Counted from the first letter of the stretch, positions 1 to 13,023 are shown. The stretch is DNA of 60,250 nucleotides from Occultella glacieicola (GCF_004353825.1 NZ_SMNA01000001.1:558001-618250); one strand, 5' to 3'. Numbers and translations: made by a program. Notes: generated by a model from the sequence alone, not told the origin.

Positions 1-328
1 CGTACAGGCAGCCCTTCCCGGTGCTGTGCGGGCCGAGCTCGGCGAGCAGGTCCGTCGAGTTCACGGCCCCGTCCAGGTAGAGGGTGCTGGCCGCCTTGCG
101 CGGGGAGAATCCGATCTCGAACCAGTCGATCTCCCGCCCGCTCTCGTAGACCAGGTGCCGGTCCCCGAAACCGACGATGCTCGGTCCCCAGAGCACCGGC
201 TCGGCGCCGCTCGCCGAGCGCATGAGCCCGACGAGTCGCTCGGCGTCGGCACGCCGGACCTGATCGGGGATCGAGGCGATGAAGGCGTGCACGTCCCCCG
301 CACCAGGGCGGGTCTTCAACTCGGCCAT
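1..328 (-). CDS. DUF1801 (YdhG-like) domain protein, 3' end outside window
   Basis: Translated by hand from ATG at 328: MAELKTRPG...PVLWGPSIVGFG...WFEIGFSPRKAASTLYL...LGPHSTGKGCLY, typical of DUF1801 proteins; not in the ORF track because it runs off the edge. Confidence 0.8.
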   Translation of the reverse strand, partial: MAELKTRPGAGDVHAFIASIPDQVRRADAERLVGLMRSASGAEPVLWGPSIVGFGDRHLVYESGREIDWFEIGFSPRKAASTLYLDGAVNSTDLLAELGPHSTGKGCLY

Positions 329-428
329 GCCGCAGATCCTGCCACCGGGCGCCGACATCCGCGCGGGCTTGGTGGACAAGCAGGGCGGCCGGGCCCGTGG
401 CGGGGCCGACCGTCCTGAGGAACCGCGG

Positions 429-608
429 TCAGGCGTTCTCGTCGCCGACCTTGCCGTCCGCGAAGTCGCGCCCCTGCTGCACCTTGTCCGCGTACTTGCC
501 ACCGGTCTTGTCGTTGGCGAAGTCCGCGGCCCGGTCGAGGGCACTGTCCGTCCGTTCCTCGTTGCCGAGCAACTCGCCGGCCTTCTTCTTCAACTCGTCG
601 AAACCCAT
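429..608 (-). CDS. Small MT0933/Rv0909-like 'antitoxin' family protein
   Basis: MGFDELKKKAGELL...LDRAADFANDKTGGKYADKVQQG; the DKTGGKYADK motif is characteristic; GGAGG RBS upstream of ATG 608. Confidence 0.8.
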   Translation of the reverse strand: MGFDELKKKAGELLGNEERTDSALDRAADFANDKTGGKYADKVQQGRDFADGKVGDENA

Positions 609-759
609 CTGCATCCCTCCCGAACCCGAGCCGGGCGAGTGCCCGGTCAGGGCTGAGTCTCGACCAGGGCGGCTCGATCCGCACCCCGGATCGAGGCTCA
701 GGCTCGTGGTCGCCGGGTCCGGCGGACGGGACGACGTCGGTGTCCAGAGGCCACGGCAC

Positions 760-1974
760 TCACCTCCCCGCGAGTACCAGCCGGCTGGCCGAGCCGGAAC
801 CCGGGTCCGCCACGGCGGTCAGGGCGAGGGCGGTCCCGGCGATGCCCGAGAGCAGCCCGGGGCCGTCGTGGTCGCCCTGGTCGGGCGCGGCGGCTGGGCT
901 GGCACAGCGGGCCGCGAGGGCCTCATGCGCCAGGCCGACGGCGGCGCTGCGGTGGTCGGCGGAGTCCAGTTGGGTGGCGGTCGAGGCGAGCAGGTCCCAG
1001 GTTCCCGCGGCACCGTGGCCGAGGCTCAGGTCGGTGGTGGCGCGTGCGGCCCCGGTGGCCGAGCGTACGGCGGCATGCACGTCGGCGAGCAGGTTGTTCC
1101 TGGGGGTCGCCAGGGCCAGACCCTGATCGCGCAGGGCGAGCAGGCGCAGCCTGGTGAGCCCGATGCCGATGGGGCCGGTCCACGGGTCGTCGGAGGGTCG
1201 GCCATCGAGTGGCGCCGAGGCGATGCCGGGTCCCGCCCCGGGGGTGGCCCAGGTGTCGGTTTCGGGCACGAACCAGGCCGACTCCCAACGCAGTCCGCCG
1301 TCGATGAGGGGGACCAGGTCCGTCGCGAGCACCGGATAGCGGGCGGCCGCCTCGGCCAGGGCGAGGATGACGCCCGAGGTTCCGTGGACGAGCCCGGTCC
1401 GGGCGCGACCGTCGGTGCCGGGCCAACACACGGTCCCGGATGGCAGGCGCCGGGCGCCGGCGCGCAGGCGCCGGGTGGCGGCCGAGACGGCGGTGGCGGG
1501 AGCGTCACAGACGAGCAACCCGAGCAGGTGACCGGCCGTGCCGGAGGCGAGATCGTGCCGCCCCGGCGCGGTCCGCACGGCGCCCGCGGCACGGCGGGCC
1601 CGCTGCCGCAGCTCGGGGGAGTCGGCAGCCGTGCCGACCCGGTGGGCGGCGCAGGCAACACCGGCCAGCCCGGTGAGCAGGCCCGGGGCGCCGTCCCGGA
1701 TGGCACCTTCCAGGGCTCGGGTCGAGGCATCCACCGCGAGGTCGAGCAGGTCGGACCGGTCGAGCGTGCGGCCCAGCTCGGCCAGGGCCCAGGCGGTCCC
1801 GGCGTCGCCGTCGTCGACGGCGTGGGGTGAGGCGCCGCGGACGGTCCGGCCCCGTGGCGAGGACCGGTGCCAGGTGGGTCCGGAGCCGCCGCGCACCACA
1901 CCGGCGTGCAGTTCGTCGGCGAGACCCCGCGCGTACGCCAGGAGGTCCGGTTCGTCGAGCGCGGTCACAGCCAT
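760..1974 (-). CDS. LanC-like (lanthionine synthetase C-like) protein, zinc-ligand motifs degenerate
   Basis: Repeated GxxG helix-barrel motifs (DGDAG, GLLTGLAG, DLASGTAG, GLVHGTSG, SLGHGAAG, GLLSGIAG); start overlaps stop of the upstream HopA1-like gene. Confidence 0.75.
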   Translation of the reverse strand: MAVTALDEPDLLAYARGLADELHAGVVRGGSGPTWHRSSPRGRTVRGASPHAVDDGDAGTAWALAELGRTLDRSDLLDLAVDASTRALEGAIRDGAPGLLTGLAGVACAAHRVGTAADSPELRQRARRAAGAVRTAPGRHDLASGTAGHLLGLLVCDAPATAVSAATRRLRAGARRLPSGTVCWPGTDGRARTGLVHGTSGVILALAEAAARYPVLATDLVPLIDGGLRWESAWFVPETDTWATPGAGPGIASAPLDGRPSDDPWTGPIGIGLTRLRLLALRDQGLALATPRNNLLADVHAAVRSATGAARATTDLSLGHGAAGTWDLLASTATQLDSADHRSAAVGLAHEALAARCASPAAAPDQGDHDGPGLLSGIAGTALALTAVADPGSGSASRLVLAGR

Positions 1975-2897
1975 GGTTCGTCCCAATCTGCGCTGTCGCG
2001 GACCCGGTGTGGCCGGCGGAGGTCGATGCCCTCCCGGGCGAACGCGGTACGGGTCCGACGGATGAGTTCGGGGGTCGCCGGGAACGGGTCCTCCAGCAGC
2101 GTCCGAGCCAGGAGATGGCACCGGAGCTCACCGAACGTGGGCCCCGTGGCCGCGGACTGACCGACACCGACCCCTGGTCCGAGCCGCAGGGTCAGTGCCG
2201 GGGTGGCCGGCCGCAGCAGTGGCGCCAGGGCCTCCACGAGGTCACCGATCAGGCGGGTGCCGCGCATGAACGCCCCGACCGGGACCGTCAGGTGGGTGGC
2301 GTCCGGGCGCCCCGACGCCTCCCGGTCGGCCGGGGTCTCCAGGGCCCACGGTTCGTCCCAGGCCCCGATGCGGGCGGTGACGGCCCGCACCAGGTCGGGC
2401 AGGGTGTCCGCGGGAGCGTTCAGGTGGATCCGGAGCAGGTTCGTGCCCGAGCCCTGCAGGCGCGGCCCCCAGCCGGACCCCCAGGTGCGCCAGCGGTCGC
2501 CGACGGTCCGCGCCGCCAGTTCCCGCACCTCGACGGCATCGGTGGTCTCGACCTCGCGGCCGCCGGATTTGCCGAGGATGTTGGCGGCGACCGTGCTCCG
2601 GGGACGACCGGCGTCGGCCGGCTGCCACGCGTAGCCACCGGCCGCGGTGCGCCACCCGACCGAGGGACGCCACCGGTCGAATCCTGCGTGGGCGACGCGC
2701 AACAGCCCGGCCAGCGGGGGTTCGGCGGGGTCGGCGGCAGGCACCGGAGCGGCCGGCGCGTACCAGTCCCGCAGCAGGTGCTCGGTGAGCTCCGCGACGC
2801 CATGCACCCGGCCGAGGATGAGCATGCGCCGGACCATCGTGATGGCAGCCCCGAGCTCGTCGACGGCCGTGGTCGGTTCCACCATGGTGGTGCGCAT
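1965..2897 (-). CDS. HopA1-like (phosphothreonine lyase-related) family protein, apparently degenerate
   Basis: LLRIHLN...PWALET...GRPDATHL...PALTLRLGPGVGVG...TFGELRCHLLA...FAREGIDLRRPH resembles the HopA1 family found next to LanC genes. Confidence 0.65.
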   Translation of the reverse strand: MRTTMVEPTTAVDELGAAITMVRRMLILGRVHGVAELTEHLLRDWYAPAAPVPAADPAEPPLAGLLRVAHAGFDRWRPSVGWRTAAGGYAWQPADAGRPRSTVAANILGKSGGREVETTDAVEVRELAARTVGDRWRTWGSGWGPRLQGSGTNLLRIHLNAPADTLPDLVRAVTARIGAWDEPWALETPADREASGRPDATHLTVPVGAFMRGTRLIGDLVEALAPLLRPATPALTLRLGPGVGVGQSAATGPTFGELRCHLLARTLLEDPFPATPELIRRTRTAFAREGIDLRRPHRVRDSADWDEPWL

Positions 2898-2940
2898 CGG
2901 GGGCTCCCATCACGGCCCCGGAGTGGGGCCGGCACCTGGA

Positions 2941-2968
2941 GATGAGCGGCCGCGACGGTTCCTGATAC
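2941..2968 (-). promoter_or_regulatory. Putative ECF promoter for the HopA1-like/LanC-like operon (GTATCAG-N15-CTCATC)
   Basis: Minus strand reads GTATCAG (2968-2962), 15 nt, CTCATC (2946-2941); mirrored by a copy on the plus strand. Confidence 0.5.
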
Positions 2969-2999
2969 GTCGCGGCCGGCATCCGCCTCCGAACCGCGT

Positions 3000-3027
3000 G
3001 TATCAGACCCGACCGGAGCGCCTCCTC
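3000..3027 (+). promoter_or_regulatory. Putative ECF promoter for the S8-sigma-CHAT operon (GTATCAG-N15-CTCCTC)
   Basis: Plus strand GTATCAG (3000-3006), 15 nt, CTCCTC (3022-3027); same boxes and spacing as the divergent copy. Confidence 0.5.
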
Positions 3028-3152
3028 GTCAGCAGGTCCGGACCCGCACCGACCCTGGTCGGGCGCGAAGCGCCGCACTAGGCTCGAATCGCGCACGTCC
3101 CCGGAACGCATACCCGTCGCAGTACCCGTCGAGACAACAGGAGAACAAGGAC

Positions 3153-4802
3153 GTGAGTCAGAACATCCCAGGCGAGGCCGGTGTCCCCCTGGTGTCCGAA
3201 CCCCCGATCGGTCTGCCGAACGCGTCCTGGGAGCGCTACCGGGCCCGCGTCCTGGATCCCTCCACCGCGGTCCAGCGAGCGGGTGAGGCGGCCCTGCACC
3301 CGACCGTCTACTCGGTGGACTCGGTCCTGATCCGCGGTGCCGCCGTCGAGGGCGCCCTGAAGGCCCTCGGCAACGTCGCCCGGGAACTCGGCCTCGGCCT
3401 GGTCACCGACGACGAGGCGAGAGCCGAACGTGAGTACCTCGGCCGACCCGAGTTCGGGCCCGAGGTGCGCGGCCTGATCGAGGAGAACTGGGTGGAGAGC
3501 GCCCGGGTGGTCCGACTGGACCCCGCCGCCCCTGCCGAGCCCGTGGACGCGTGGCGCCTGGTGCAGGCCTACCGGGCCGCGACCGGGCGCGCCGACGAGG
3601 TGGCTCTCGACCACCTCGTGTTCTCCGCGACGGACATCGGCGGCACGCCCTACACGATCCCGCACGTCGCCGGTGGTGCGCCGCACGACATCTCCTCCAG
3701 CGGCGGCGGCACCCCGTACACGATCCCGCACAGCAACAACGGGCTCTCGACCTACGCCATGCCCGGTTCCGGCGGTCGCCAGCCGGTGGCCTGGCTCGGT
3801 CCCGAGCCTGCTCCACGCAACGACCCGACGGTGCACCGGCCCGTCGTGGCCGTGCTCGACACCGGGGTCGGCGAGCACCCCTGGCTCGGCTCGGACGTCG
3901 TCATCCGTGACCCCGAGGTCCTCGGCCTGCCCCTCGGCCTCCCGCGGCTCGTGCCGGACACCGAGGAGACCGGCACCGCGAACCCGCTCGTCGGCGGGCT
4001 CGAGGCCGACGCCGGTCACGGCACGTTCATCGCGGGGCTGATCCGCCAGCAGTCCGCGGACGCCCGGATCCTCTCGGTCCGGGTGTTCCGGGGCGACGGC
4101 GTGGTGGCCGAGTCCCAGCTGGTGCGCTCGCTGCGCCGGCTGGTGCTGTGGCAGGTGGTCGCGATGGCGTCCGGCGACCCGGACATGCCGCCCGTCGACG
4201 TGGTGTCCCTGTCGCTCGGGTACTACCACGAGCAGCCGGCGGACCTCGCCTTCGACCCACTCCTGTGGTTGCCGCTGAAGGCGCTCGGAGCCCTCGGCGT
4301 GACCGTCGTGGCGGCTTCGGGCAACGACGCCACCACGCGGGAGATGTTCCCCGCGGCGTTCGCCGACTACCCGGGGGGCCCCGCGCGGACCGCGCCGGAC
4401 GCGTTGGCGCTGCAGGCCGTCGGCGCCCTGAACCCGAACCGCACCACGGTGGCCCTCTTCTCGAACGAGGGACCGTGGGTGCGGCACCGCCGGGTCGGTG
4501 CCGGCCTGGTCAGCACGTTCCCGACCACGATCAACACGTCGCTGAACCCGGTCGCGTCGCTGGCCCACGAGGGCAGGACCCGGGCCACCATCGACCCCGA
4601 CGACTTCGCGTCCGGGTTCGCCACCTGGAGCGGCACGTCCTTCGCCGCCCCGGTGTTCGCCGGTGAGGTCGCGGCCGCCCTGGCCGAGCTGTACGCGGGC
4701 GGCGCCGACTCGGCGAAGGCGGCCGACGCCGTCGAGCGGGGTCGTAAGGCGCTCGCGAACCTGCCCGGCGCGAGCGCCACGGACGGCGGTGCTTCGCGAT
4801 GA
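3153..4802 (+). CDS. S8/S53 family subtilase, no signal peptide
   Basis: Catalytic triad motifs VAVLDTG, AGHGTFIAG and WSGTSFAAP; oxyanion AASGND; AGGAG/AAGGA upstream of GTG. Confidence 0.92.
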   Translation: MSQNIPGEAGVPLVSEPPIGLPNASWERYRARVLDPSTAVQRAGEAALHPTVYSVDSVLIRGAAVEGALKALGNVARELGLGLVTDDEARAEREYLGRPEFGPEVRGLIEENWVESARVVRLDPAAPAEPVDAWRLVQAYRAATGRADEVALDHLVFSATDIGGTPYTIPHVAGGAPHDISSSGGGTPYTIPHSNNGLSTYAMPGSGGRQPVAWLGPEPAPRNDPTVHRPVVAVLDTGVGEHPWLGSDVVIRDPEVLGLPLGLPRLVPDTEETGTANPLVGGLEADAGHGTFIAGLIRQQSADARILSVRVFRGDGVVAESQLVRSLRRLVLWQVVAMASGDPDMPPVDVVSLSLGYYHEQPADLAFDPLLWLPLKALGALGVTVVAASGNDATTREMFPAAFADYPGGPARTAPDALALQAVGALNPNRTTVALFSNEGPWVRHRRVGAGLVSTFPTTINTSLNPVASLAHEGRTRATIDPDDFASGFATWSGTSFAAPVFAGEVAAALAELYAGGADSAKAADAVERGRKALANLPGASATDGGASR

Positions 4803-5410
4803 TCGAGGCCAGCCCGGGCGAGACCCTCGTGGTCCGAGCCAGCGCGGCGTTCGAGCGGTTCCGTGGCGGTGACCGCGCCGCGTTCGACGACCTGGTCGGC
4901 ATGCTCACCCCGTTGCTGTGGCACACCTCGCGTGGGCAGGGCCTGGACCGCACCGAGGCAGAGGACGTGCTGCAGACGGTCTGGCTGAGCCTGGTCCGCA
5001 GCGCGGCGTCGGTGCGGGATCCGCGCACGGTCGTGAAGTGGCTGTTGGTGACCACCAAGCGGGAGTCGTGGCGGGTCTCCCGAGCGCGCGGCAACGAGCT
5101 GGCGCACACCTCGACGCCACGGGCGGACGCCGAGACGGACGAGCTCGACCGGGTCGCGGTGCCGGCCGAGGACCTGCCCGAGCATGTCGCCGTCCGCAAC
5201 GAACGCGACCTGCGGCTGTGGCACCACGTCCGGGAGCTCTCCGACCGATGCCGTGAGCTCCTGCGCGTGATCGCCTTCGCCGACCGGCCCGACTACGCCG
5301 CGATCGCCGAGGCGCTGGGCATGCCGGTCGGCAGTATCGGACCGACACGTGGCCGGTGCCTGGCCCGGCTGCGTGCGAAGCTCTCGACCGACCCGGGGTG
5401 GGTGTCATGA
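4799..5410 (+). CDS. ECF (sigma-70 group 4) RNA polymerase sigma factor
   Basis: Region 2 (AEDVLQTVWLSL...WLLVTTKRESWR) and region 4 (LSDRCRELL...YAAIAEALGMPVGSIGPTRGRCLARLR); ATGA overlap with S8 gene. Confidence 0.93.
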   Translation: MIEASPGETLVVRASAAFERFRGGDRAAFDDLVGMLTPLLWHTSRGQGLDRTEAEDVLQTVWLSLVRSAASVRDPRTVVKWLLVTTKRESWRVSRARGNELAHTSTPRADAETDELDRVAVPAEDLPEHVAVRNERDLRLWHHVRELSDRCRELLRVIAFADRPDYAAIAEALGMPVGSIGPTRGRCLARLRAKLSTDPGWVS

Positions 5411-5910
5411 CGGACAAGGAACGCTGGACCGCCGCGGAGGTGGCCTCGGCCGCCGAACCCCTCGACGACCGGGACGCGGCGATGCTCGCCGGACTGCGCC
5501 GGTTCTACGAGGAGCAGGACCCGGTCCCGGACGGGCTCGTGGACCGGCTCAAGTTCGCCGTCGCCCTGTCCGAGCTGATGACGGAGGTGGCCGAGCTCAC
5601 CCGGGTGCCCACCGTCGCAGCCGGGGTCCGCTCCGAGGTCGCGGTGACCCGCACCCACACCCTGACGTTCTCGGCCGAGTCCCTGACGGCGATGGTCACC
5701 GTGGGGCACAGCGGCACCAGCGCCCGCCTCGATGGGTGGATCGCCCCGCCGCGCGAGCTCGCGGTGCGCCTGCGGATGGACGGTCGCGAGCTGAGCACCC
5801 GCAGCGAACCGACCGGACGGTTCGTCTTCGACAACGTCCCCGAGGGCTTCGTGCAACTGGTCTTCGAGATCGGCACCACTACGGTGGTGACACCGCTCTT
5901 CGAACTGTAG
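5407..5910 (+). CDS. Soluble putative anti-sigma / carboxypeptidase-regulatory-like domain protein
   Basis: ATGA-coupled to the sigma gene; helical N-terminus (DPVPDGLVDRLKFAVAL) followed by a beta-rich domain (TLTFSAE...GRFVFDNVPEGFVQL...VVTPLFEL); no transmembrane segment. Confidence 0.7.
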   Translation: MTDKERWTAAEVASAAEPLDDRDAAMLAGLRRFYEEQDPVPDGLVDRLKFAVALSELMTEVAELTRVPTVAAGVRSEVAVTRTHTLTFSAESLTAMVTVGHSGTSARLDGWIAPPRELAVRLRMDGRELSTRSEPTGRFVFDNVPEGFVQLVFEIGTTTVVTPLFEL

Positions 5911-5936
5911 GAGCCGAACCCTCCGGAGGCCCGCAG

Positions 5937-8528
5937 GTGCTCGACCTGGACCTGGCAGAGCAACGACTCACGGAGGGGCTCGGGCGCAACGCCGAGGGCC
6001 ACTCCGCGGCGGCCGCGCGGATGCTCCGCGACCTGGTCCGCACGGTCGAGACCGCCGCGGACCGGAGACCGGCCGCCGAGCTCGTGCTCGCCCGGGCCTA
6101 CGTCGGCCTGGCCACCTCCACGTTCGACACCGATGCCGACCTGACCGCGGCCCAGACGCTCCTGCGCCGGGCCGCCGACCATGCCGAGGCGGCCGGTGCG
6201 GACGCCGTGCGGGCGGCGATCCGTGGACAGCAGGCGCTGCTGCTGATGCGGTCCGGGCGGCTGGCCGACGCCGCGGACGCGTTCGGGCGCGCCATGGAGC
6301 TGATCGATGTCGCCCTGCCGCGGGACCAGGTCCGGATCCTGGTGAACCGGGGCACGCTCGCCCTGGAGTTCGGCCGGCTGGACCAGGCGCGCGTGGACCT
6401 GCGCGCCGGCGTGCGGATCGCCGCCGCCGAGGGCGATGTGCTCGTCGAGTCGATGGCCCGGCACAACCTCGGCTACACCGACTTCCTGGCCGGGAACCTG
6501 CCGCGGGCGCTGGCGGAGATGTCCGCTGCCGCGGACATCGCCCCGGGCGGGCGCACCCCGGTGTTCTACCTGGACCGTGCCCGGGTGCTCCGGGAGGCCG
6601 GTCTGGTCCGGGACGCCGACGTCGCCCTCGCCTCCGCGGCGGAGGAGTTCCGGGCGGACCGGCGCGGCCAGGAGCTGGCCGAGGTGGAACTGCTGCGCGC
6701 CGAGTGTGCGCTCGTCGAGGGCGCCCCGGACCGTGGGCGCACGCTCGCCCTGGGCGCCGCGAGGCGGTTCCGTCGCCGCGGCAACGTGATGTGGCAGCGA
6801 CGCAGCGAGTTCGTGGCCCTGCGCTGCGAGCGGGCGCTCGCCGCGGAGTCTCCGGCTCGGCTGTCCCGCCTGGCGACCCGGATCACCGACTTCGTCGAGA
6901 CGGTCGCGGCGGAGGGGCGCCGGGACCTCGCCGACGCCGGTGGCCTGCTGCTGGCCGGCACCCTGCTCGCCGCGGGCGAGGACCCGGTCCGTGCCGGCGC
7001 CGAGGGGGCCGAGGGTGCCGAGGGTGCCGCGAAGACAGCGTCGCTCGACGCCGTGCTCCGGCTGCGCCCGGACGACACGTTCCGGACGCGCATCGAACGG
7101 CGTGAGGTGCGGGCCCAGCTCGCCCTCGCCCGGCACGATCCCGCGCGGGCCCGGCGTGAGGTGCGGGTCGGCCTCGCCGAGCTGACCGATCACCGGGCCA
7201 GGTTCGACTCCCTCGACCTGCGCACCGCCGCGGCCGTGCACGGGTCGCGCCTGGCCGGCCTCGGCACGGCGCTGGCTCTCGCCGACGGCGGTGCGGCGCG
7301 GCTGTTCGACAGCCTCGAGTGGGCCCGGTCGGTCCTGGTCCGGGTGCCGGGCGTGAGTGGGCCGGCGGACCCGGAGGGAGCCGAGTTGCTCGGCGCGCTG
7401 CGGCGTGCGGAGGAGGAGTCCCGCGACCTGATCGGTGAGCCCGAGCACGCCGCCGAGCGGGCGCGGCTGCGGGAGCGGGTGGCCGACCTGCAGCGTCAGA
7501 TCCGGTCCCGGGCCTGGGAGCGCGACGGCGCGGCTCCGGTCGACACGGAGGTCGTCACCCTCGGGCGGGTCCGCGAGGTGCTGCGGACCGATCCCGGCGC
7601 CACGCTCGTGAACTTCGGTGCGTACGGCGGCCGGTGGTACGCCGTGGAGGTCACCGCCGGCCGGGCCCGGGTCCGCGAGCTCGGATCCACCACGCAGGTG
7701 GCCGAGCTGATGCGGCGGGTGCGGGCCGATCTCGACGCGTTGGCGCTGCCGCTGCTGCCCGAGCCGATCGCGAGCACCGTCCGGACCGCGCTCGCGGACG
7801 AGCTGGCCCAGTTGGACGAGATCCTGCTCGCCGGCTCCGGGGCGGGCGGGCCCCTCGTGCTCGCGACCGGTGGGAATCTCGCGGCGGTGCCCTGGACCCT
7901 GCTGCCGTCCCGGCGCGGACTGCCTACCGTCGTCGCCCCGAGCGCAACGATGTGGTGGCGCGCCTGGCGGGCCGGCGTGCGTCCGGACCGGCCGTCGGTG
8001 CTGGCTGTCGCCGGTCCCGGCCTGGATCGAGCCGAGGACGAGGCCGCCCGGGTTGGCGCGGCCTGGCCCGGCGCCGAGGTCCTCGGTGGGGTCGGCGCCA
8101 CCGCCGCCCGGGTGCGCACGGCGCTGGCCGACCACGACGTGATCCATGTGGCCGCGCACGGGGTGCACCAGTCCCAGAGCCCGCTGTTCTCCTCGCTGCG
8201 GCTGGCGGACGGCCCGTTGTTCGCGCACGAGCTCGAGGACCAGAACCTGCGCGGCGGCTGCGTGCTCATCTCGGCGTGCGAGGCCGGGCTGGTCAGCGTC
8301 CGGCCCGGCGACCAGCCGCTCGGGCTCGCGAGCGTGCTGCTGCAGCTGGGCACGCGCGCCGTGGTGGCCGGGGTGGCGAACGTGAACGACCGGGCCGCGG
8401 CGGACGTGATGACGGACGTGCACACACGCCTGGCGGCCGGTACGGACTCCGCGACGGCGCTCGCTGCGGCCCTGGCCGACCACGACGGCCCGCCCGCCCC
8501 CTTCGTCTGCTACGGCAGCGCCTGGTAG
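5937..8528 (+). CDS. TPR-repeat + CHAT (caspase-like) domain protease
   Basis: TPR-like helices (RILVNRGTLALEFGRLDQA, MARHNLGYTDFLAGNLPRAL); intact CHAT dyad HVAAHG and LISACEAG; C-terminal APFVCYG; GGAGG before GTG 5937. Confidence 0.9.
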   Translation: MLDLDLAEQRLTEGLGRNAEGHSAAAARMLRDLVRTVETAADRRPAAELVLARAYVGLATSTFDTDADLTAAQTLLRRAADHAEAAGADAVRAAIRGQQALLLMRSGRLADAADAFGRAMELIDVALPRDQVRILVNRGTLALEFGRLDQARVDLRAGVRIAAAEGDVLVESMARHNLGYTDFLAGNLPRALAEMSAAADIAPGGRTPVFYLDRARVLREAGLVRDADVALASAAEEFRADRRGQELAEVELLRAECALVEGAPDRGRTLALGAARRFRRRGNVMWQRRSEFVALRCERALAAESPARLSRLATRITDFVETVAAEGRRDLADAGGLLLAGTLLAAGEDPVRAGAEGAEGAEGAAKTASLDAVLRLRPDDTFRTRIERREVRAQLALARHDPARARREVRVGLAELTDHRARFDSLDLRTAAAVHGSRLAGLGTALALADGGAARLFDSLEWARSVLVRVPGVSGPADPEGAELLGALRRAEEESRDLIGEPEHAAERARLRERVADLQRQIRSRAWERDGAAPVDTEVVTLGRVREVLRTDPGATLVNFGAYGGRWYAVEVTAGRARVRELGSTTQVAELMRRVRADLDALALPLLPEPIASTVRTALADELAQLDEILLAGSGAGGPLVLATGGNLAAVPWTLLPSRRGLPTVVAPSATMWWRAWRAGVRPDRPSVLAVAGPGLDRAEDEAARVGAAWPGAEVLGGVGATAARVRTALADHDVIHVAAHGVHQSQSPLFSSLRLADGPLFAHELEDQNLRGGCVLISACEAGLVSVRPGDQPLGLASVLLQLGTRAVVAGVANVNDRAAADVMTDVHTRLAAGTDSATALAAALADHDGPPAPFVCYGSAW

Positions 8529-8555
8529 CGGGCGGATCGGGTCACGTCGGCCGCC

Positions 8556-9352
8556 TCACCACGGGACCACGCCGAAGCGGTCCGTGAACGTCCCGGTGAC
8601 CCCCGGTCCCGCCTGCGCGGCCGCGACGATGGCGTCCGTACCCTCCATGAGGGTCTGGGTGCCCTCCGGGCTCATGTCGGTCGCCGTGTACCCGGGGTCC
8701 ACGAGGTTGAACTGCACCTGCTCGATGGCACGCGCGTACTGGGTGGTCATCATGTTCAGGGCGGCCTTGGACGAGGTGTAGACGAGGCCTGGATCGCGTG
8801 CTCCATGCGCCTGGGGTCGGACGTGACGGCGATCGAACCGAGGCCGCTGGAGACCATGACCACCCGGGGGCGCCGGGCGGCGCGCAGCAACGGCAGGAAG
8901 GCCTGCGTCACCCGGACCGGACCGAGCACGTTCACCCCATAGGGGCCGAGGAAGTCCGCCGCGGTGGTCCGCGCCGGGTCGCCGGTCGCGCCGAGCACGC
9001 CGGCGTTGTTGACCAGGACGTCGAGGTGGTCGTGGTTCGCGCGGACCTGTTCGACGGCGGCCGTCACGGAGTCCTGCGACGTCACGTCGAGCGCGACGGC
9101 CCTCACGTCCAGGCCCGCGGCGACCAGGTCCGCCGCCGCGGCGTCGCCGCGCCCGGGATCGCGGGCGCCGAGCAGGACCCGCCAGCCGAGCTCGCCGAGG
9201 CGGCGAGCGGTGGTGAGCCCGAGGCCACGGTTGGCGCCGGTGATCAGCACCGTGGTCGCCTCGCCGGCGGGCTCGCGGGCGTCGGGTCGATGGTCGACGG
9301 CGGAGGTCAGGTGGGTCGGTCGGCCTGCGGTGGTCGAATCGGTGGTTGCCAT
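8556..9352 (-). pseudogene. Short-chain dehydrogenase/reductase with a frameshift near 8790
   Basis: ITGANRGLG, LVNNAG and VSSGLGS lie in one frame; YTSSKAALNM...DPGYTATD...VVPW lies in another; one base appears to be missing at ATCCAGGCCTC. Confidence 0.85.
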
Positions 9353-9475
9353 GGCCCCACCGTTGCTCCGGGGTCCGGGTGGGTCCAGGTAGCGCGGATC
9401 CTGGGAGCCGCGGTACCAGGATCCGCGACCGTCGACCCTCGCGGTGGCAGCCCGCCGGGGGGCATGCTGGTGGGC

Positions 9476-10333
9476 GTGAACCGCAACGAGCTGGCCGCCC
9501 TGCTGCGCCGAGCCCGGGAGCGGGTGCGCCCCGAGGACGTCGGCCTGCCGGCCGGGTCCCGGCGTCGGGTGCCGGGCCTGCGCCGGGAGGAGGTCGCCCA
9601 GCTCGCCGGGCTGAGCGTGGAGTACATCGTCCGGCTGGAGCAGGGCCGCGGGCCGCACCCCTCCACGCAGGTGCTGCAGGCGCTATCCCGTGCCCTGCGG
9701 CTGCCCGATCCCGAGCGTGACCAGTTGTACGTGCTCGCGGATGCGGCGCCACCGCGACCGGGACAGATCCAGATGACCGTGCGGCCCGGCCTGCTCCGGC
9801 TGCTCGATCGGCTCACGGACCTGCCCGCCCTGGTGCTCTCCGCGAAGAGCGACGTGCTGGCCTGGAACCCGATGGCCGCGGCGCTGCTCGGGGACCTGTC
9901 CCGGTGGCCCGACCGGGAGCGCAACATCATCTGGCAGCGGTTCCTGGGCACCGGGCCCGGGCGGGTCGCGATGGCTCCGGAGGAACGGGAGGCGGTGAAA
10001 CTGACGTCCGTGGCGACCCTGCGCACGGCGATGGCGCGCTACCCCGAGGACCTCGCGTTGCTGCGCCTCATCTCCGGCCTGCGCCGCGGTAGTGCGGAGT
10101 TCGAACGACTGTGGGGCGAGGGGCACACCTGCGACTGGCGCTCGCTCACGACCACGGTGGACCACCCCGACCTCGGCAGGCTCGTGCTCGACTGCGACAC
10201 CGTCTCGATGCCCTGCGCGGATCAGAGCATGATCATCTACTCGGCGACCCCCGGCACGCCCGCCGCCCAGGCGCTCGCGCTGCTCCGGGTGACCGAGTCG
10301 CAGGACCTCGCCCCGACCGGGGCGTCGTACTGA
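9476..10333 (+). CDS. XRE-family HTH regulator with MmyB-like ligand-binding domain
   Basis: LRRARERVRPEDVGLP...RRRVPGLRREEVAQLAGLSVEYIVRLEQGR; DVLAWN; HPDLGRLVL; divergent from the SDR gene. Confidence 0.92.
   Translation: MNRNELAALLRRARERVRPEDVGLPAGSRRRVPGLRREEVAQLAGLSVEYIVRLEQGRGPHPSTQVLQALSRALRLPDPERDQLYVLADAAPPRPGQIQMTVRPGLLRLLDRLTDLPALVLSAKSDVLAWNPMAAALLGDLSRWPDRERNIIWQRFLGTGPGRVAMAPEEREAVKLTSVATLRTAMARYPEDLALLRLISGLRRGSAEFERLWGEGHTCDWRSLTTTVDHPDLGRLVLDCDTVSMPCADQSMIIYSATPGTPAAQALALLRVTESQDLAPTGASY

Positions 10334-10425: not shown

Positions 10426-13023
<2,598 letters not shown>

Follow-up and report, generated by a model that had tools for sequence, protein, structure and literature searches.

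A Putative Protease-Gated ECF54 Sigma Factor Locus with a Divergent LanY/LanC-like Operon in Occultella glacieicola

The window analyzed here is a stretch of 60,250 nucleotides (nt) from Occultella glacieicola (NZ_SMNA01000001.1:558001-618250), with a G+C content of approximately 72%, in which six genes form two divergent operons. The right-hand operon encodes an S8 pro-subtilase, a sigma factor of the extracytoplasmic function (ECF) type, a sigma partner of 167 amino acids (aa), and a TPR-CHAT protein; judging from gene context and promoter, and not from a group hidden Markov model (HMM) or tree, it is a member of the sigma factor group ECF54. The left-hand operon encodes a HopA1/LanY-like and a LanC-like protein, both probable pseudoenzymes. 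On balance, we favor the reading that the ECF54 locus acts as an autoregulated, cytoplasmic, protease-gated transcription switch, of which the left operon is a regulon member.

According to this proposal, the N-terminal helices of the partner would hold the sigma factor inactive; activated TPR-CHAT would cut the partner in its linker, at Arg75, and the sigma factor so freed would direct transcription of the two operons and of a few genes far from them. The S8 protease would mature through removal of its prodomain, and a repeat-containing linker may couple the two proteases. The left operon would be a lineage-specific member of the regulon, not part of its core, and may derive from a class Vb-type set of LanK, LanY, and LanC. 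The cleavage of an ECF inhibitor by a TPR-CHAT protein has a precedent in the relevant part of PMC10028731.

Gene Content and Operon Structure

All six open reading frames (ORFs) translate without an internal stop. ATGA overlaps join S8 to sigma and sigma to the 167-aa gene, and 10 nt are shared between the HopA1-like and LanC-like genes, which bears out the two divergent, tightly coupled operons described in an earlier note on this DNA. The features, in window coordinates, are as follows:

760-1974 (-): LanC-like protein, 404 aa; Pfam LANC_like, 1e-17; probable pseudo-cyclase
1965-2897 (-): HopA1/LanY-like protein, 310 aa; Pfam HopA1, 5e-13; probable pseudo-lyase
2942..2968 (-): ECF54-type promoter GTATCAG-N15-CTCAT (CTCA variant), facing the HopA1/LanC-like operon
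3000..3026 (+): ECF54-type promoter GTATCAG-N15-CTCCT (exact), facing the S8-sigma-partner-CHAT operon
3153-4802 (+): S8 pro-subtilase, leaderless, 549 aa; Pfam Peptidase_S8, 9e-15
3639..3731 (+): S8 linker segment holding a 9-residue peptide repeat (GGTPYTIPH), two copies
4799-5410 (+): ECF sigma factor, 203 aa; NCBIfam TIGR02937 (sigma70-ECF), 48.4 bits (cut-off 42.9)
5407-5910 (+): 167-aa sigma partner; CarboxypepD_reg, E 0.052; probable soluble anti-sigma factor
5629..5631 (+): Arg75 codon in the partner linker; inferred candidate CHAT cleavage site
5937-8528 (+): TPR-CHAT caspase-like protease, approximately 863 aa; Pfam TPR and CHAT, 3e-24; start inferred at GTG 5937, behind GGAGG

The Pfam Sigma70_r2 match of the sigma factor (2e-4) falls below the cut-off. 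Each of the six genes has one tblastn match in its own genome, and the closest named relatives of the HopA1-like and LanC-like proteins are Occultella records. Codons 3858, 4017, and 4638 encode the Asp, His, and Ser of the S8 protease, and codons 8157 and 8277 the His and Cys of CHAT; the S8 residues are invariant in 32/32 aligned homologues, and so is the His-Cys dyad in 32/32 aligned TPR-CHAT homologues, in agreement with the intact triad and dyad proposed earlier. A hydropathy scan, made with no dedicated signal-peptide predictor, found no N-terminal hydrophobic stretch (best 19-residue mean <=1.08 over the first 45 residues), and the maximum over all six proteins (1.83) lies within the S8 catalytic domain, which is consistent with the claimed lack of signal peptides and transmembrane helices. 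Neither sigma-70 promoters nor terminators were found across window positions 1-9500. The inventory of the earlier note stood as to genes and residues; it had overlooked the promoter pair, the S8 linker repeat, and the catalytic loss in the left-hand genes.

Assignment to ECF54 and Gene Co-occurrence

According to the ECF54 passages of previous studies (PMC7826278, PMC8999054), in Actinobacteria a carboxypeptidase-regulatory-like protein is always encoded at +1 of the sigma gene and a subtilase at -1 or +2, the neighborhood includes CHAT and TPR domains, and the promoter reads GTATCAG (-35) and CTCC (-10). The main text of PMC7826278 also mentions a nearby 4Fe-4S protein. The window shows the same arrangement, with an ECF sigma factor, a CarboxypepD_reg-like protein at +1, S8 at -1, TPR-CHAT at +2, and the GTATCAG/CTCC promoter. 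The system is thus not undescribed, as had been claimed, since its four-gene neighborhood and promoter have already been published as ECF54. It differs from the published passages in that these give no anti-sigma factor, S8 repeat, HopA1/LanC-like genes, or experimental mechanism, whereas the window adds a divergent second promoter leading into the LanY/LanC-like operon. The 54 closest sigma loci are all labelled Actinomycetota, and CarboxypepD_reg matches weakly in 44 of 54 partner homologues (E up to 0.05, best 1e-4). ECF54 was reportedly first described by Huang et al. in 2015, and that description may anticipate some of these points.

Co-occurrence was counted with home-made profiles, built from the sigma-anchored and relative groups, in windows of up to 20 kb, some on short contigs. 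Among 58 sigma-anchored loci, 54 scored above the sigma threshold, of which 52 contain the partner and 28 all four core genes; a LanY-like gene was present in four, and LanC or the kinase in none. Of the 20 other genomes with a partner match, 19 were counted as relatives; sigma and partner occur in all 19, all four core genes in 16, a LanY-like gene in four, and a LanC-like gene in three. In 40 class-wide loci, picked from more than 100 matches, sigma and partner occurred together in 40 and all four core genes in 27, while LanY, LanC, and kinase were absent. The partner family is present in 21/41 related genomes and in 100/301 class-wide actinomycete genomes. Where the sigma-partner locus has no CHAT gene, a TPR-CHAT match was detected elsewhere in 10/10 genomes tested (one broken, one partial). 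LanC-like genes adjoin the ECF54 module only in three congeners and in the Knoellia-type loci described below.

It follows from these counts that sigma and partner are a fixed unit, with the proteases as usual companions and the left operon as an accessory. The six-gene set is lineage-restricted, and the six-gene system proposed in the earlier note was rejected as a conserved one because the neighborhood check of homologues found HopA1/LanC-like genes in 0/40 class-wide loci.

Promoter Pair and Putative Regulon

The pattern GTATCAG-N14-17-CTC has two sites in the window, 3000(+) and 2968(-), against 0.15 expected; they lie back to back within the inter-operon gap, and one of 100 shuffles reached two sites. 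With a stricter pattern, the O. glacieicola genome contains five sites at spacers of 15-16 versus two across the other 16 spacer lengths. Both promoters retain their boxes, with altered spacers, in 3/3 congeners. Across 41 genomes, 64 motif sites were found versus 18 for the reversed control, 55 of them in the 21 genomes with a partner gene and nine in the 20 without (reversed control, nine and nine); these counts are support and not a statistic, the pattern having been tuned on related loci and kin not being independent. Because the promoter pair stands between the operons and is kept in three congeners, the sigma factor probably drives both of them, as had been supposed. Autoregulation of the S8-sigma-partner-CHAT operon would proceed through the promoter at 3000..3026 (+).

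Elsewhere in the genome, strict sites lie before a 1024-aa AAA/BTAD regulator (C11:191929), a GH127 hydrolase (C18:247458(-)), and a deacetylase-like gene, the last named by eye (C20:268539(+)); GH127 also lies behind a site in a second genome. The AAA/BTAD regulator adjoins a contractile-injection cluster outside the window (C11:171000-192000), which includes Pvc16, AAA, eCIS core, sheath, tube, and baseplate genes. The site before this regulator is retained in 3/3 congeners, two with one mismatch, and no such site precedes its relatives in 10/10 more distant loci. A general link from ECF54 to injection systems was rejected, as none was found beyond the genus. Three further sites were treated as chance, namely C22:4591, which resembles a sigma-70/TetR promoter, and C1:23807 and C16:18213, which lie inside genes.

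Pfam matches among 41 motif-downstream proteins, picked from 84 listed, included S8 (three), C1, M4 with emfourin, a weak M12, CHAT, patatin, WhiB, and radical SAM; patatin and WhiB were each found in one genome. Other proteins behind the motif belong to transport and metabolism, and some are surely there by chance. The theme of the regulon is proteolysis more than phage defense.

Several further ECF54-type sites were noted. At L016:6423-8048, a site precedes an uncharacterized 396-aa protein whose start, by eye, resembles a Cys-His peptidase and which has no Pfam match, together with a 137-aa partner, and this pair lies directly upstream of the S8 operon. At L108:2457-4023 a site precedes an unknown protein and a radical SAM gene, and at L100:575-2090 two unknown coiled proteins with no Pfam match.

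The 167-aa Partner as a Putative Anti-sigma Factor

The partner is the most conserved of the six genes, with a ratio of nonsynonymous to synonymous divergence (dN/dS) of <=0.03. Its structural model (mean predicted local distance difference test score, pLDDT, 89.6; predicted template modeling score, pTM, 0.56) comprises three helices (residues 9-66), a low-confidence linker (pLDDT 53-66 over residues 61-80), and an Ig-like sandwich (residues 82-167). For residues 82-167, which were all that this fold search covered, VIA-align listed only Ig-like sandwiches (best Z 9.3, root-mean-square deviation 2.3 over 85 residues) and no anti-sigma fold; Foldseek gave no match for the partner model at E 0.001. 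An Atlas feature search led to a cluster with 36% zf-HC2 members (score 0.86), the sole positive anti-sigma sign, and an Atlas search with residues 1-75 returned no usable match. From its position, translational coupling, shape, and the Csx30 precedent, the partner is probably a soluble anti-sigma factor.

Within the linker, Arg75 is Arg in 111/117 homologues, including 76/78 of those with CHAT in the locus. Because separase, a relative of CHAT, cleaves after Arg, Arg75 is a candidate cut site for the CHAT protease.

Alternatively, the proteases may be outputs of the sigma factor or may degrade it directly, in which case the 167-aa protein would be an adaptor or co-activator instead of an inhibitor. 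We regard this as rather unlikely. Proteolytic control without an anti-sigma factor is proposed in the ECF54 passage of PMC8999054, and no anti-sigma sequence signature was found in the partner. The motif-preceded genes of other genomes include the peptidases listed above (S8, C1, M4 with emfourin, and weak M12), and in one genome S8 and CHAT lie 9 kb from the sigma gene, behind a motif of their own. However, sigma and partner are translationally coupled and almost always linked, and the partner has a helical N-terminus followed by a flexible linker and a very low dN/dS, all of which argue for an inhibitor.

The S8 and TPR-CHAT Proteases

The S8 protein consists of a prodomain (residues ~10-160), a disordered linker (162-200), and a catalytic domain (230-535); its model has a pLDDT of 81.8, falling below 50 in the linker, and the best fold match is pro-Tk-subtilisin (E 2e-12). 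The repeat units of the linker, which number 2-10 in homologues, are identical within one protein and different among lineages. An exact repeat of at least five residues is present in 34 of 56 scored S8 homologues and missing from a lower-scoring subgroup. The unit in the window contains Thr and no Cys. Among candidates for a specificity signal, or for a cleavage site that couples the two proteases, the linker repeat is the strongest.

RRNPP regulators are TPR proteins that bind short processed peptides. By extension of the proposed switch, repeat peptides released from S8 might bind the TPR region of TPR-CHAT and activate it, forming a self-specific positive feedback loop. The repeats suit such a loop in being uniform per protein, lineage-specific, and placed in the disordered segment that separates the prodomain from the catalytic domain. 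However, 22 of the 56 S8 homologues, including 11 lower-scoring class-wide ones, contain no exact repeat, and the locus encodes neither an export signal nor an importer; the extension is tentative and, to our judgement, unlikely.

As for TPR-CHAT, two further CHAT-domain genes lie elsewhere in the same genome, and the best 60 listed matches of a profile search were TPR-repeat matches.

Comparison with Craspase and DdvS/DdvA

According to the relevant part of PMC10028731, Craspase (Csx29, Csx30, and CASP-sigma) shares with the window a TPR-CHAT protein with a His-Cys dyad, an ECF sigma factor, a two-part partner, and in-locus sigma sites. It differs in that the window operon includes a subtilase, the Csx29 model scores below cut-off on TPR-CHAT (30.1 bits versus 300), and no Csx30 match was reported for the partner. 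Cas1 has no match in the genome and no cas gene is found among the six proteins, with no search aimed at Cas7-11. The window system does not appear to be a Craspase, and the absence of a Cas1 match supports the earlier proposal of a CRISPR-independent, apparently cytoplasmic protease-sigma module.

In Myxococcus xanthus, as described in part of PMC11506125, the ECF sigma factor DdvS is likewise controlled through a TPR-CHAT-containing protein, DdvA. DdvA combines, in one membrane protein, a zinc anti-sigma domain and a periplasmic TPR-CHAT portion with an incomplete active site, whereas the window system has separate, soluble parts and a complete dyad.

TPR-CHAT with an ECF sigma factor is, in the passages of both studies (PMC10028731, PMC11506125), a theme of defense, and the locus might by analogy be an anti-phage or programmed-death system. 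An ECF54-type site precedes the BTAD regulator by the contractile-injection cluster in congeners, and patatin and WhiB genes lie behind the motif. However, PADLOC gave no match beyond a weak one to S8, Cas1 was not found in the genome, the site is missing before the BTAD regulator relatives in 10/10 distant loci, and most motif-preceded genes encode hydrolases, transport, or metabolic proteins. The locus also lies among ordinary genes, including one that we presume to encode ClpB. A defense role is very unlikely on these grounds.

LanY-like and LanC-like Proteins as Probable Pseudoenzymes

According to part of a previous study (PMC9486802), HopA1-like proteins in clusters for RiPPs (peptides of ribosomal origin that carry post-translational modifications) are LanY phospho-Ser/Thr lyases acting with an APH kinase; CaoY requires Arg187, Lys219, and Arg229, and its K219A variant is inactive. 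Among 128 family representatives, the four matching columns show Arg in 122, Lys in 102, Arg in 116, and Tyr in 100, their equivalence to CaoY being drawn from spacing (31/10/7 versus 32/10/7) and not from a CaoY alignment. The window LanY-like protein has Glu187 in the Lys column and Thr204 in the Tyr column, and the lyase Lys is absent in 9/9 kinase-less LanY-like genes beside ECF54 operons.

The zinc ligands of LanC are two Cys and one His, a motif confirmed in relatives. The LanC-like protein retains the GxxHG acid His motif, and both zinc Cys are replaced. The WCHG and CHG motifs are replaced in 4/4 congeners, and the cysteines are present in 4/4 more distant homologues. No solved-structure sequence match was found for this protein.

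No linked LanK kinase was found among the window genes or at the locus in three congeners; a tblastn search of the O. glacieicola genome at E 0.01 gave no match to the Knoellia kinase, though the genome contains 36 unlinked APH matches. A precursor scan over 20 kb around the locus gave no convincing small Cys/Ser/Thr ORF, and each of the four listed candidates either falls inside or opposite another coding frame or has the base composition of non-coding DNA. Outside ECF54 loci, class-wide LanY matches mostly adjoin kinase-like genes, several with short precursor-like ORFs by eye. Because catalytic residues are lost (the lyase Lys and Tyr and the LanC Cys) and no linked kinase or precursor was found, the pair would be unable to make lanthionine, and the reading of the window as a functional class V lanthipeptide cluster was rejected. 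An ordinary class V-type cluster (precursor, kinases, HopA1-like protein, and flavoprotein) was seen at L135:4981-9054, unlinked to the ECF54 locus of that genome.

The left-hand genes show no stop or frameshift in 4/4 congeners, and their dN/dS is 0.18-0.31 (LanC-like) and 0.14-0.34 (LanY-like), as compared with 0.00-0.13 for the core genes. Identity to congeners is 74-80% for the left-hand and 94-99% for the core genes, and synonymous divergence (dS) is approximately twofold higher (0.5-0.6 versus 0.2-0.3). Both proteins are probable pseudoenzymes that are not decaying freely, and such residue loss under purifying selection fits the "repurposed RiPP-enzyme folds" of the earlier note; they are probably kept as non-catalytic peptide- or phosphopeptide-binding proteins.

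Knoellia-type Loci and Class Vb Machinery

In seven records, six from Knoellia and one labelled Rothia (L138:5555-10195, equal to L164; L139; and L165-L169), a trypsin-like protease, an APH kinase, LanY, and LanC are encoded divergently from the S8 gene; one of the contigs breaks off within S8 and another within LanC. The protease carries a C-terminal tail of approximately 70-80 residues with 8-9 Cys and 14-20 Ser/Thr. The kinase and LanY motifs are intact in 7/7 loci, and the LanC zinc motifs in 6/6 complete genes. A GTATCTG-N15-CTC pair, an ECF54-type promoter pattern, stands back to back in 7/7 loci.

LanK, LanY, and LanC together constitute a class Vb lanthipeptide synthetase, as in the SmoA system of Pei et al. 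2022, according to summaries in parts of PMC11186320 and PMC12328550, with CaoK/CaoY (PMC9486802) as a further point of comparison. As in this class, PF17914 and PF05147 genes stand side by side in the window, LanY before LanC, and the Knoellia-type loci have all three enzymes. The window differs in having no linked kinase or precursor, no lyase Lys/Tyr, and neither LanC cysteine. In the Knoellia type, the likely substrate is the Cys/Thr-rich tail on the trypsin-like protease and not a free peptide, so this type looks like class Vb machinery acting on a protease-fused precursor. In a further genome, at L159:7200-12200, an S8 protease gene that seems to be frameshifted encodes a Cys/Ser/Thr repeat tail; kinase, LanY, and LanC genes come after it, and 17 kb contained no ECF54 module.

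In a LanY tree (FastTree, 73 sequences, 287 columns, midpoint root, long branches), limited to sequences of at least 220 aa and to representatives up to P0080, the window protein groups with other Lys-less proteins (support 0.98), a second Lys-less clade stands apart (0.998), and the Knoellia proteins are placed elsewhere, away from the window protein. Descent of the window LanY from the Knoellia type is not supported, and because the tree separates them the two architectures are taken to be parallel.

The HopA1/LanC-like pair may instead be a decaying relic of a Knoellia-type operon with no present function, which seems doubtful to us. The missing linked kinase and precursor, the lost catalytic residues, and the lower identity to congeners would suit a relic. 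However, the reading frames are open in all four congeners, their dN/dS is 0.14-0.34, and the promoter boxes are kept. Five further loci hold solitary Lys-less LanY-like genes next to ECF54 operons, the Lys-less genes fall into two supported clades, and the window protein is not grouped with the Knoellia LanY.

Weighing of the Proposed Switch

Several points count against the protease-gated switch with its anti-sigma partner and retained left operon. The linker Arg is kept in 35/39 loci without CHAT nearby and is possibly structural. An N-terminal partner profile failed to single out the anti-sigma factors of the same genome (best rank 224 of 1845 scored), the comparison of the partner with one zf-HC2 protein was negative, and no Pfam domain was found in the best 120 partner homologues. 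The ECF54 account in the passages of PMC7826278 names no putative anti-sigma factor, and the corresponding passage of a review proposes control via proteolysis of the sigma factor itself (PMC8999054). On the left-hand side, the dS gap suggests recombination or a separate history of these genes, and their dN/dS of 0.2-0.3 could reflect slow decay instead; the tuned promoter pattern and the spacing-based CaoY columns belong with these points.

A more far-reaching version would make ECF54 a widespread two-protease, peptide-gated switch, in which the S8 repeat peptide activates TPR-CHAT, which in turn cuts the soluble anti-sigma factor at the conserved Arg; it would recruit class V machinery either intact, working on a protease-fused precursor (Knoellia), or as dead proteins retained for binding (window), and in this genus it may reach the injection cluster via the BTAD regulator. 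This version as a whole is improbable in our estimate.

Flanking Genes

Downstream of the TPR-CHAT gene, at window 8556-10333 and 10426-13023, lie what we take, from sequence features, to be a short-chain dehydrogenase, a divergent XRE/MmyB-type regulator, and then a ClpB-type chaperone, all ordinary neighbors. On the 3' side of the LanC-like gene there are two small genes at about 480-610 (-) and 1-330 (-), presumably of a short acidic antitoxin/CsbD-like kind and DUF1801-like, respectively.

Significance

In the open-access literature searched, no paper was found on the six-gene set, the S8 repeat, or a protease-fused precursor; within that scope, what is new is a conserved pseudo-LanY/LanC operon linked through its promoter, an intact counterpart of Knoellia type with a protease-fused tail, and the candidate cut site. 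The switch is common, its partner family occurring in a hundred of 301 actinomycete genomes, and the published ECF54 passages contain no tested mechanism. As handles, the locus offers two promoters, one candidate cut site in a candidate inhibitor, and a peptide that is a candidate signal. If the proposed mechanism is true, it would reveal a role of free-standing TPR-CHAT proteases outside CRISPR. The conserved dead LanY/LanC pair would exemplify the reuse of RiPP enzymes in regulation without catalysis, and the Knoellia-type operon suggests sigma-controlled lanthionine chemistry on a protease-fused tail.

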